From the NCBI RefSeq assembly GCF_056746865.1, contig NZ_CM163382.1: a DNA stretch of 64,000 bases; one strand, 5' to 3'. A program made the position numbers. This document shows positions 15,001 through 21,000 of this stretch, in pieces (position 1 is the first letter of the stretch; each line of letters begins with the position of its first letter).

Positions 15001-18000
15001 CGTGGAGATGCCGCCGTGCTGCTGGCGGCACAAGCTATCCGCGCGGTGGCGCTGGGTGTTGTGGTGACAGCGTTAGTACAGGCAGTGCTTGGCGGTATCG
15101 GCCTCGCCGTATCCGGCGTACCTTATGCAACTTTGCTCACGGTGTTAATGATCCTCTCCTGCCTTGTCCAGCTTGGACCGTTGCCGGTACTGATTCCGGC
15201 GATTATCTGGCTCTACTGGACTGGCGATACCACCTGGGGAACGGTATTGTTAGTGTGGAGCGGTGTGGTTGGCACGCTGGATAACGTCATCCGCCCAATG
15301 TTAATTCGCATGGGTGCCGATTTACCGCTGATCCTGATTCTCTCTGGCGTTATTGGTGGTTTGATTGCTTTCGGGATGATCGGCCTGTTTATTGGTCCGG
15401 TTCTGTTAGCCGTTTCCTGGCGTCTTTTTGCCGCGTGGGTGGAAGAAGTCCCACCGCCGACTGACCAACCGGAAGAAGTTCTCGAAGAACTTGGCGAAAT
15501 CGAGAAACCGAATAAGTAATTTCTCATCAGGCGGCTCTGCCGCCTGATTGTTAACCCCTGCTAATTGATATTTGCTTGCTCTTCCCCATATTTTCCTGCT
15601 TACCGCCATTCAGCTGGTAGTACCTGTCGCAAATTCTTTACAGTTTTTAAACTAATGAGACGAATCTGATCGACGCAAAAAGTCCGTATGCCTACTATTA
15701 GCTCACGGTTATAAATCAACATATTGATTTATAAGCATGGAAATCCCCTGAGTGAAACAACGAATTGCTGTGTGTAGTCTTTGCCCATCTCCCACGATGG
15801 GCTTTTTTTTAACATTTTTCCGCTTCGCTACCTCGCCCCTCACGCTTTCCAATAATGTTGCACAAGATACTGTGACTCTCTTCAAGCCGTCAGCAGGCTG
15901 ATAATGTTATTTATATTTTATTGTTTATTTCATGCAGCCATTACACGATGAACGCTTATGAACTCCAGGCACTCCGCCATATTTTTGCCATGACTATTGA
16001 TGAATGCGCGACCTGGATTGCCCAGACCGGTGACAGTGAAAGCTGGCGTCAATGGGAAAATGGCAAATACGCCATTCCTGATCGTGTAGTCGAGCAACTG
16101 TTGGCTATGCGTCAGCAAAGAAAAAAACATCTTCATGCCATCATAGAGAAAATAAATAACCGCATCGGCAACAACACCATGCGTTTTTTCCCCGACTTAA
16201 CCGCGTTTCAACAAGTCTACCCTGATGGCAATTTTATTGACTGGAAGATCTATCAATCGGTAGCCGCTGAATTATATGCACACGATCTGGAGCGCCTTTG
16301 TTAATTTTCCAAAGAAAGGAATTGTCGTTGTTACAACAATAATGAACGGATGCTGACACAACATCGCTTCACTTTTTAAAGCACCTTTGCTAAGTAGAAC
16401 CTATGAAAAATCCCTATTTCCCTACCGCACTGGGGTTGTATTTTAATTACCTGGTGCATGGTATGGGCGTCATTTTGATGAGCCTGAATATGGCCTCGCT
16501 GGAGACGCTTTGGCAGACTAATGCCGCAGGCGTCTCAATAGTTATCTCATCGCTGGGTATTGGTCGATTAAGTGTCTTGCTTTTTGCAGGATTATTATCC
16601 GATCGCTTTGGTCGCCGCCCTTTTATCATGCTCGGGATGTGCTGCTATATGGCCTTCTTTTTTGGCATCCTGCACACCAATAACATTATTATCGCTTATG
16701 TTTTGGGCTTTCTGGCGGGAATGGCAAACAGTTTTCTCGATGCAGGCACATATCCCAGTTTGATGGAAGCTTTTCCACGCTCACCGGGGACAGCCAATAT
16801 TTTAATTAAAGCATTTGTTTCCAGCGGACAATTTTTGTTACCGCTAATCATTAGCCTGTTAGTGTGGGCTGAACTGTGGTTCGGTTGGTCCTTTATGATT
16901 GCTGCAGGCATTATGTTTATTAACGCTCTGTTTTTATACCGTTGTACGTTCCCACCCCATCCGGGTCGTCGCTTACCTGTCATAAAGAAAACCACCAGAT
17001 CTACGGAACATCGCTGTTCAATTATCGATTTAGCCAGTTATACCTTATATGGTTATATCTCAATGGCAACGTTTTATCTGGTTAGCCAGTGGCTGGCACA
17101 GTACGGACAATTTGTTGCAGGCATGTCATACACTATGTCGATCAAACTACTTAGGAAGGTGCGAACAAGTCCCTGATATGAGATCATGTTTGTCATCTGG
17201 AGCCATGGAACAGGGTTCATCATGAGTCATCAACTTACCTTCGCCGACAGTGAATTCAGCAGTAAGCGCCGTCAGACCAGAAAAGAGATTTTCTTGTCCC
17301 GCATGGAGCAGATTCTGCCATGGCAAAACATGGTGGAAGTCATCGAGCCGTTTTACCCCAAGGCTGGTAATGGCCGGCGACCTTATCCGCTGGAAACCAT
17401 GCTACGCATTCACTGCATGCAGCATTGGTACAACCTGAGCGATGGCGCGATGGAAGATGCTCTGTACGAAATCGCCTCCATGCGTCTGTTTGCCCGGTTA
17501 TCCCTGGATAGCGCCTTGCCTGACCGCACCACCATCATGAATTTCCGCCACCTGCTGGAGCAGCATCAACTGGCCCGCCAATTGTTCAAGACCATCAATC
17601 GCTGGCTGGCCGAAGCAGGCGTCATGATGACTCAAGGCACCTTGGTCGATGCCACCATCATTGAGGCACCCAGCTCGACCAAGAACAAAGAGCAGCAACG
17701 CGATCCGGAGATGCATCAGACCAAGAAAGGCAATCAATGGCACTTTGGCATGAAGGCCCACATTGGTGTCGATGCCAAGAGTGGCCTGACCCACAGCCTA
17801 GTCACCACCGCGGCCAACGAGCATGACCTCAATCAGCTGGGTAATCTGCTGCATGGAGAGGAGCAATTTGTCTCAGCCGATGCCGGCTACCAAGGGGCGC
17901 CACAGCGCGAGGAGCTGGCCGAGGTGGATGTGGACTGGCTGATCGCCGAGCGCCCCGGCAAGGTAAGAACCTTGAAACAGCATCCACGCAAGAACAAAAC

Positions 18001-21000
18001 GGCCATCAACATCGAATACATGAAAGCCAGCATCCGGGCCAAGGTGGAGCACCCATTTCGCATCATCAAGCGACAGTTCGGCTTCGTGAAAGCCAGATAC
18101 AAGGGGTTGCTGAAAAACGATAACCAACTGGCGATGTTATTCACGCTGGCCAACCTGTTTCGGGCGGACCAAATGATACGTCAGTGGGAGAGATCTCACT
18201 AAAAACTGGGGATAACGCCTTAAATGGCGAAGAAACGGTCTAAATAGGCTGATTCAAGGCATTTACGGGAGAAAAAATCGGCTCAAACATGAAGAAATGA
18301 AATGACTGAGTCAGCCGAGAAGAATTTCCCCGCTTATTCGCACCTTCCCTTAGTATCTACACCGTGGGTTCGCTGCTTTGTGTATTTATTACCGCTCCAC
18401 TCATTCGTAATACCGTTCGCCCAACAACATTACTGATGCTGTACACCTTTATCTCATTTATTGCTCTGTTTACCGTCTGCCTGCATCCCACATTTTATGT
18501 GGTGATAATATTTGCTTTTGTCATTGGTTTTACCTCTGCTGGAGGTGTTGTGCAAATTGGCCTGACGTTAATGGCTGAACGTTTCCCCTATGCTAAAGGT
18601 AAAGCTACAGGGATCTATTACAGTGCGGGCAGTATTGCAACATTTACCATTCCGTTGATTACGGCTCATCTGTCCCAAAGAAGTATTGCCGATATTATGT
18701 GGTTCGATACCGCCATCGCTGCCATCGGCTTTTTACTGGCACTGTTTATCGGCTTACGCAGCCGCAAAGAAACGCGGCATCACTCGCTAAAGGAAAATGT
18801 CGCTCCGGGTGGGTAATGCAATATTCTTTTCAGGTCATGCAAGATCTTACGGATAAATAACTATTTCTGCGCTAACTAAGGAAAATCGCGATCAAAAACA
18901 AACTATGACATGCAATATTCCTGGAAACATAAACTTTATGCCATGTACCCAGGGAAAATCATCTTCAGTATAGTAATTATGTAAACCGTCGGAGAACAAT
19001 ACGTACGGTAACGAAATTATCTTTCAGCAAGGAGCTGTGAAAATGTCTCAAAATAAGGCTTTCAGCACGCCATTTATCCTGGCTGTTCTTTGTATTTACT
19101 TCAGCTATTTCCTGCACGGCATTAGTGTTATTACGCTTGCCCAAAATATGTCATCTCTGGCAGAAAAGTTTTCCACTGACAACGCGGGCATTGCCTATTT
19201 AATTTCCGGTATCGGTTTGGGGCGATTGATCAGTATTTTATTCTTCGGTGTGATCTCCGATAAGTTTGGTCGTCGGGCGGTGATATTAATGGCAGTAATA
19301 ATGTATCTGCTATTCTTCTTTGGTATTCCCGCTTGCCCGAATTTAACTCTCGCCTACGGTCTGGCAGTGTGCGTAGGTATCGCTAATTCAGCGCTGGATA
19401 CGGGTGGCTACCCCGCGCTCATGGAATGCTTTCCGAAAGCCTCTGGTTCGGCGGTCATACTGGTTAAAGCGATGGTGTCATTCGGGCAAATGTTCTACCC
19501 AATGCTGGTGAGCTATATGTTGCTCAATAACATCTGGTACGGCTATGGGCTGATTATTCCGGGTATTCTGTTTGTACTGATCACACTGATGCTGTTGAAA
19601 AGCAAATTCCCCAGCCAGTTGGTGGACGCCAGCGTAGCTAATGAATTACCGCAAATGAACAGCAAACCGTTAGTCTGGCTGGAAGGTGTTTCATCAGTAC
19701 TGTTCGGTGTAGCCGCATTCTCGACCTTTTATGTGATTGTGGTGTGGATGCCCAAATATGCGATGGCTTTTGCTGGTATGTCAGAAGCTGAGGCATTAAA
19801 AACCATCTCTTATTACAGTATGGGCTCGTTGGTCTGTGTCTTTATTTTTGCCGCACTGCTGAAAAAAATGGTCCGGCCCATCTGGGCTAATGTATTTAAC
19901 TCTGCACTGGCAACAATAACAGCTGCCATTATCTACCTGTACCCTTCTCCATTGGTGTGTAATGCCGGAGCCTTTGTTATCGGTTTCTCAGCAGCTGGCG
20001 GCATTTTACAGCTCGGCGTTTCGGTCATGTCAGAGTTTTTCCCAAAAAGCAAAGCCAAAGTCACCAGTATATATATGATGATGGGTGGACTGGCTAATTT
20101 TGTTATTCCGCTGATTACCGGTTATCTGTCGAACATCGGCCTGCAATATATCATTGCTCTCGATTTTACTTTCGCGCTGCTGGCCCTGATTACCGCAATT
20201 ATTGTCTTTATCCGCTATTACCGCGTTTTCATTATTCCTGAAAATGATGTGCGGTTTGGCGAGCGTAAATTTAGCACCCGGTTAAACACAATTAAGCATA
20301 GAGGTTAAAGGAGTTAATTATGGATGTTACCGCAAAATACGAATTGATTGGGCTGATGGCCTATCCCATCCGCCACAGTTTATCGCCTGAAATGCAGAAT
20401 AAAGCCTTAGAAAAAGCGGGATTGTCATTTACCTATATGGCCTTTGAAGTGGATAACGATAGTTTTCCCGGAGCAATTGAAGGATTAAAAGCCCTCAAAA
20501 TGCGCGGAACTGGTGTATCAATGCCGAACAAACAACTGGCGTGTGAATATGTTGATGAATTAACGCCAGCGGCCAAACTGGTGGGTGCCATCAACACCAT
20601 CGTTAATGATGATGGCTATCTGCGTGGCTATAACACCGACGGCACGGGCCATATTCGCGCCATTAAAGAGAGCGGTTTTGATATCAAAGGCAAAACGATG
20701 GTGCTGTTAGGGGCCGGAGGTGCCTCAACGGCGATTGGCGCGCAGGGGGCAATTGAAGGTTTAAAAGAAATTAAACTCTTTAACCGTCGGGATGAGTTCT
20801 TCGATAAAGCCCTCGCCTTCGCGCAGCGGGTTAACGAAAACACCGATTGTGTCGTCACGGTTACCGATCTCGCCGATCAGCAAGCCTTTGCTGAAGCCCT
20901 GGCTTCCGCCGACATTTTAACCAATGGCACAAAAGTGGGTATGAAACCCCTTGAGAATGAATCATTGGTTAATGATATCAGTCTGTTACATCCGGGACTT

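Follow-up and report, generated by a model that had tools for sequence, protein, structure and literature searches.

A strain-specific IS5 insertion in ydiM of a CFSAN061770-like Escherichia coli

When an insertion sequence lands in one gene of a locus, does it merely destroy that gene, does it alter the expression of the genes behind it, or has its presence been favoured by selection? The question is raised by a stretch of 64,000 nucleotides from contig NZ_CM163382.1 (RefSeq assembly GCF_056746865.1), which we call the window, where a complete copy of IS5 interrupts ydiM, a gene for a transporter of the major facilitator superfamily (MFS), upstream of ydiN, ydiB and aroD. The answer we regard as very probable is the plainest one: IS5 recently entered ydiM of a strain resembling CFSAN061770 by simple transposition, creating a null allele and leaving the rest of the locus unchanged. 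The insertion is real and strain-specific, and is an ordinary loss-of-function event of a known kind.

The element, the interrupted gene and the strain

The features that make up the insertion are as follows (ORF, open reading frame).

16403..17153, plus strand: 5' fragment of ydiM, codons 1-250 plus one base (ORF list; joined to 18353-18816 it gives the ydiM of CFSAN061770)
17150..17153, no strand: left copy of the CTTA target site, ydiM +748..751 (not YTAR; TTAG stands at +749..752)
17154..18348, plus strand: complete IS5 (99.6% identical to K-12 IS5A, 100% to many copies)
17154..17169, plus strand: left terminal inverted repeat of IS5, GGAAGGTGCGAACAAG (repeat search and end-motif scan)
17222..18202, plus strand: IS5 transposase gene insH/ins5A, 326 amino acids, intact (NF033581, 365.7 bits)
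18172..18348, plus strand: 3'-terminal 177 bp of IS5, equivalent of the 'IB' region (position inferred from PMC2753651; A-tracts present in the sequence)
18333..18348, minus strand: right terminal inverted repeat of IS5, GGAAGGTGCGAATAAG (repeat search and end-motif scan)
18349..18352, no strand: right copy of the CTTA target site (read in the window)
18353..18816, plus strand: 3' fragment of ydiM, from the remainder of codon 251 through the stop codon, lacking its own start and promoter (ORF list and excision comparison)

Direct reading of the window and alignment agree that the element spans 1195 bp and carries its transposase on the same strand as ydiM. It starts with GGAAGGTGCGAACAAG and its last bases, ending at 18348, are CTTATTCGCACCTTCC; read inward from the right, the second repeat pairs with the first at 15 of 16 positions. 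The repeats had been described as intact in the original prediction, and the description holds up well, the single mismatch being identical to that between the two ends of IS5A in K-12. Matches to the IS5 terminus elsewhere in the 64 kb are absent: the search returned both element ends and no others, where 0.09 would be expected by chance. In its length of about 1195 bp and its 16-bp imperfect repeats with ends of the form GGAAGGTGCGAA(C/T)AAG, the element has the anatomy of IS5, and its single long ORF for an IS5-family DDE transposase is unbroken, departs from K-12 InsH1 at one residue, and aligns with profile positions 1-285 of 285 of the NCBIfam IS5-family model NF033581, well above the cut-off of 140 bits. 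Over its full length it matches IS5A at 1190 of 1195 nucleotides (5 differences), and is indistinguishable from many copies annotated as 'IS5-like element IS5 family'. Judged by sequence, then, this is IS5 itself and not a relative; the ISKpn26-type elements found elsewhere in the locus are merely 91-96% identical. With its ORF and its two ends undamaged, the copy is predicted to be capable of transposition.

How has ydiM fared? The gene starts at 16403 and is interrupted after 17153, with CTTA on either side of the element. If IS5 and one CTTA (17154-18352) are deleted, a 1215-bp ORF is restored that is base-identical to the ydiM of CFSAN061770 (WP_000795534.1). The break follows codon 250 of 404, so that 250 N-terminal and 154 C-terminal codons are separated, as good as the fragments of roughly 250 and 155 codons that had been foreseen. 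Reading on into the element, the 5' ORF continues for 7 codons before a stop at 17174-17176, giving a product of 257 amino acids. A profile search assigns YdiM to the MFS transporters, and in a hydropathy scan the truncation falls at the start of a hydrophobic segment (about residues 245-268), with the later hydrophobic segments lost. We infer that the insertion is probably a null allele from which no functional MFS transporter could be made.

The consequences for the cell are predicted to be modest. In K-12, ydiM is needed for an active bo3 quinol oxidase solely when both bd oxidases are absent, and is dispensable in ordinary K-12; its deletion also slowed the uptake of 64Cu, linking the gene to copper uptake (PMC10588857). 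Given that the requirement in K-12 arises only without the bd oxidases, loss of YdiM from an otherwise wild-type strain would be expected to have a mild phenotype, seen under special conditions alone.

The surroundings of the insertion are equally informative. In a whole-region alignment the window is 99.99% identical to CFSAN061770 over 62.8 kb, with colinear flanks, and differs from it by single-nucleotide polymorphisms (SNPs) at 5401, 23541, 42881 and 52855 plus the IS5 insertion, and by nothing else. As these four SNPs and the insertion are the only differences, the background strain is, on this comparison, CFSAN061770-like and not K-12. The 25 kb downstream are 100% identical in CFSAN061770, EC31 and EF5-18-41, and almost as close is a record whose label gives O15:H18 ST69; a search with these 25 kb returned just 313 records at 99% identity or more, and the background is apparently of ST69 type. 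CFSAN061770 itself came from raw-milk cheese in Egypt. The earlier comparison with K-12 was therefore half apt: ydiM is indeed intact in MG1655 (b1690, 1215 bp), as had been expected, but the window is not K-12, the two genes being 98.1% identical. Since excision restores the gene exactly and the closest genome has the same flanks in the same order, simple transposition is the natural account, in line with what had been proposed. A larger rearrangement was considered and rejected, both flanks being colinear with CFSAN061770 with 4 SNPs in 62.8 kb. Aligned against reference genomes and IS5, the element's ends and its duplication, coordinates included, are exactly as first read.

The course of events would then be short. 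A copy of IS5 would have transposed, probably recently, into the chromosomal ydiM of a CFSAN061770-like strain; the DDE transposase would have made a 4-nucleotide staggered cut at CTTA (ydiM +748..751), one base away from TTAG; repair of the gaps would have duplicated CTTA; and YdiM would have been truncated after residue 250 of 404, yielding the null allele.

Where might the incoming copy have come from? Across its 1195 nucleotides the window IS5 matches, at 100%, the copy standing beside blaNDM on 46,161-bp IncX3 plasmids of many Enterobacterales, and the same allele is found on the chromosomes of E. coli strains that carry IncX3 blaNDM plasmids. It differs by 3 nucleotides from the IS5 copies of GMM076 and EECO1006, despite flanks at this locus that match the window at 100% in both genomes. 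Because the allele is identical to the IncX3 copy and differs from those of GMM076 and EECO1006, a blaNDM-adjacent IS5 of an IncX3 plasmid is a possible donor, though one we would put forward only tentatively. The source strain may thus carry, or may have carried, an IncX3 blaNDM plasmid, which, if confirmed, would be of epidemiological interest.

Target site and recurrent insertions at ydiM

The one feature that sits awkwardly with textbook IS5 behaviour is the target. IS5 duplicates YTAR (PMC5009759), a motif termed highly conserved (PMC5009759, PMC10359306), and CTTA departs from it in having T rather than A at the third position; the canonical TTAG, one of 15 YTAR sites in ydiM, lies one base to the right. 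The repeat visible to the eye is five bases long, CTTAG, since the right-hand CTTA is followed by G, the base with which IS5 begins, and the alignments overlap by 5 bp accordingly. Because the ends of IS5 are fixed by every other copy examined, the true duplication is, on sequence grounds, the 4-bp CTTA, present on both sides and removed with the element when the gene is restored. We also considered TTAG as the true duplication and rejected it: for that, the left junction would have to gain a G and the right junction to lose a C.

Is CTTA a credible target? All other mapped insertions in the ydiM region duplicate TTAA, CTAA or TTAG. Nevertheless, CTTA accounts for 1 of 24 targets in the ISfinder list (PMC5493358, Table 3), and an ATAG duplication, also off YTAR, is present in one of the loci we fetched (L030). 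In view of these two cases YTAR is a preference and no strict rule, and the simplest reading of the CTTA duplication would be a strand transfer shifted by one base. The target is itself a product of lineage history: at 17152 (ydiM +750) the window lineage has the T that creates the overlapping TTAG and CTTA, and K-12 MG1655 has C, so that ACTACTTAGTATC in the window lineage corresponds to ACTACTCAGTATC in K-12 and the site used here is nonexistent there.

An off-consensus duplication might also raise the suspicion that the junctions are artefacts, whether because of faulty assembly, because homopolymers were misread where a canonical TTAG insertion meets its flanks, or because the sequence was edited in silico. 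Compared with a TTAG insertion, the left junction has one G fewer (TTAGG for TTAGGG) and the right junction one C more (CCTTCC-CTTAG for CCTTCC-TTAG), and neither the junction nor the 257-residue product has a counterpart in the collections searched (see below). It would, however, be an unlikely coincidence for one base to be wrong precisely at each junction in such a way that the two errors compensate, and the structure is what a 4-nucleotide staggered cut at CTTA should leave. Moreover, the IS allele is a natural one and not the K-12 reference sequence, and a mis-join at a repeat would not give an exact ORF upon excision. We therefore consider an artefact very improbable indeed.

To what extent is the insertion particular to this strain? 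We searched a set of 5,426 complete E. coli genomes from RefSeq. When 300 bp with the left junction in the middle served as query, not one of them had a match over 80% of that length (0/5,426), which bears out the suggestion that the insertion is strain-specific. With the whole region as query, 12 records cover at least 80%, each with the insertion sequence elsewhere and none matching in one piece, and a query with the element reversed added 14 genomes in which an IS5-family element lies within ydiM or next to it, none at the window site. None of the complete genomes searched shares the junction. The truncated 257-residue product, looked up by exact match in a gene-position collection, likewise had no record there; this negative carries little weight, since IS copies interrupt short-read assemblies and NCBI treats genes broken in this way as pseudogenes. 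IS5, the inactivation of dispensable genes by IS5, and IS5 in ydiM are all already known; what is new is this position alone. The insertion does separate the isolate from near-identical relatives and might serve as a strain marker.

What the searches did bring to light is a series of other insertions. An IS5-family element lies in or within about 1.7 kb of ydiM in about 26 of the 5,426 genomes, where a rough expectation of about 10 follows if some 11,000 chromosomal IS5-like places are spread evenly, ignoring shared ancestry and base composition. The gene itself is disrupted in at least 14 genomes against about 3 expected, again a rough figure that is not corrected for shared ancestry. Several sites recur. 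CTAA at 18594-18597 (ydiM +992..995) hosts IS5 in reverse orientation in ECCTRSRTH03, F11, 300490 and PEC41 and ISKpn26 in C1, and an ISKpn26-bounded deletion begins there in CX12, adding up to at least five apparently independent events. TTAA at ydiM +166..169 hosts insertions in HZ13, B27 and LR-21-1, and GMM076 has an IS5-family insertion at +518..521. Eight bp before the ydiM ATG, CTAA at 16392-16395 has received three different elements in EECO1006, HCP5S3_I2 and PSJ-12 (IS5 and two forms of ISKpn26, at 94% and 91%); behind the IS5 of EECO1006, the first 242 bp of ydiM are deleted. Finally, CTAA at 18881-18884 in the ydiM-ydiN spacer (ydiM +1279..1282) carries ISKpn26 in the unrelated genomes 1916D18 and H1. 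This recurrent use of a few ydiM sites across unrelated genomes is a modest observation on how IS5 chooses its targets.

Could it be more than that? In a mouse-gut evolution experiment with K-12, IS5 insertions in ydiM at one reference position arose in two separate mice and rose to 10% (PMC7518454). By calculation, the position falls at or next to CTAA +992..995. The conversion uses an offset of 1,975 bp between two MG1655 reference versions, which we take to be correct. Together with the excess of hits in and near ydiM and the repeated events at this one CTAA, the mouse data may suggest that inactivation of ydiM is favoured in a host-associated niche and that the window insertion is one of many convergent knock-outs. 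We nevertheless consider this unlikely. Repeat use of a single tetranucleotide resembles a target hot spot rather than selection, and the recurrent sites do not include that of the window insertion. The enrichment figure, for its part, ignores clonal relatedness as well as the preference of IS5 for A+T-rich DNA (ydiM has 45% G+C), and in more than 99% of genomes the ydiM locus is free of IS5-family elements.

A broader proposal would treat ydiL-ydiM-ydiN-ydiB as a hot region for IS5-family elements whose insertions are kept either as gut-adaptive loss of YdiM or as a rewiring of ydiN-ydiB-aroD, with IS5 strand transfer one base off YTAR. If true, insertion into ydiM would serve repeatedly as an adaptive switch, much like IS5 insertion at flhDC or nfsB. 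We find it rather improbable.

The downstream genes ydiN, ydiB and aroD

Three intact genes follow the interrupted one, as annotated in the identical region of CFSAN061770.

19043..20308, plus strand: ydiN, an MFS paralogue, intact (annotation of the identical CFSAN061770 region)
20320..21186, plus strand: ydiB, quinate/shikimate dehydrogenase, intact (ORF list and CFSAN061770 annotation)
21217..21975, plus strand: aroD, 3-dehydroquinate dehydratase, intact (ORF list and CFSAN061770 annotation)

IS5 is capable of acting on its neighbours, and there are three routes by which it might alter the expression of ydiN-ydiB-aroD: its bent, IHF-binding 3' end might activate a downstream promoter, transcripts begun at the promoter of ydiM or of the transposase might read through the element, or polarity might reduce transcription arriving from ydiM. 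The orientation is suggestive. In the activating insertions at glpFK, fucAO and flhDC, the bent 3' end is on the side nearer the activated gene and the transposase promoter on the far side (PMC2753651), and in the window, too, the transposase is on the plus strand, its promoter distal and the 3' end of the element, at 18348, directed toward ydiN. The 'IB' region that activates glpFK consists of the 3' 177 bp, with A-tracts and an IHF site (PMC2753651), and read-through from the 5' end of IS5 into the downstream operon is documented for fucAO (PMC11894529). The locus even offers what may be a closer parallel: the ISKpn26 copies of 1916D18 and H1 (94.6% and 91.3% identical to the window IS5) have the same orientation, transposase promoter distal, and lie about 160 bp ahead of the start of ydiN, which hints that this promoter region is able to host elements of the kind. 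Predicted from position, theirs would be the geometry of classic IS5 promoter activation.

The position of the window copy is another matter. The element had been placed immediately upstream of ydiN, which overstates its proximity: from the right end of IS5 to the ydiN ATG there are 694 bp, made up of 468 bp of the 3' part of ydiM (18349-18816, CTTA included) and a 226-bp spacer. This distance is to the ATG, the ydiN promoter itself not being mapped. Known activation operates some 100-200 bp upstream of a promoter; at glpFK it depends on position and phase, at flhDC the sites are at about -100 and -170, and the IB fragment by itself does not act as a promoter (PMC2753651). In the window, IS5 sits within the upstream gene. 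A promoter and terminator scan of 16000-19200 yielded nothing exceeding the shuffled expectation, and a simple scan of 18200-19043 found no promoter-like site on the plus strand. The genes ydiN, ydiB and aroD are reported to be co-induced without ydiM (PMC4585142), and this co-induction suggests that they have a promoter of their own downstream of the insertion. A regulatory role for the insertion thus strikes us as quite unlikely, and its effect on ydiN-ydiB-aroD is probably little or none.

Preferring simple transposition with loss of YdiM, we should set out what weighs against it. That the allele is null and the downstream genes are unaffected is something we infer from the DNA. The simple scan detected neither a terminator-like nor a promoter-like site between ydiM and ydiN, so that some co-transcription, and with it a polar or read-through effect, is possible. 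Among the loci fetched, 51 of 63 IS5-family ends abut YTAR, unlike the CTTA of the window, although several of the others are attributable to adjacent deletions. And the case for a plasmid donor draws on allele identity, in an allele that also occurs on chromosomes and on other plasmids.

An Rfam scan of the window found no RNA family match inside the interrupted gene or the element. Matches above the gathering score, all expected here, are RprA at 15705-15812 (plus strand), rydB at 10040-10100 (minus), the pheST leader (Phe leader) at 45540-45664 (minus) and STnc540 at 41686-41844 (minus). The small RNA gene rprA lies just upstream of ydiL-ydiM, and in SCU-109 an IS5 stands directly upstream of it.

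Comparison with known IS5 copies and insertions

On our reading, the strain would have lost YdiM, one more case of IS5 inactivating a dispensable gene and one that opens no new question. Its place among known IS5 copies can be stated in the same terms. K-12 IS5A (insH1; NC_000913.3 273955-275149) shares with the window copy its length, its 16-bp ends and its transposase except for 1 of 326 residues; the two differ at 5 nucleotides, and the window copy, in ydiM, is not at any K-12 IS5 site. The copy on pNDM21_020023 (NZ_CP025948.1) lies beside blaNDM inside an IS30-family element and is flanked by CTAA, whereas that of the window is chromosomal, within ydiM, and flanked by CTTA. The other IS5-family insertions in ydiM have gene, element family and the outcome of a split ydiM in common with ours; they differ in position, in duplicating YTAR (TTAA or CTAA) and, in several instances, in being ISKpn26 or in having the opposite orientation.

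With the insertions that activate promoters at glpFK, fucAO, flhDC and bgl, finally, the window shares the element and its orientation. Those insertions lie in regulatory regions, within about 100-200 bp of the promoter they act on, whereas the IS5 described here lies in coding sequence.

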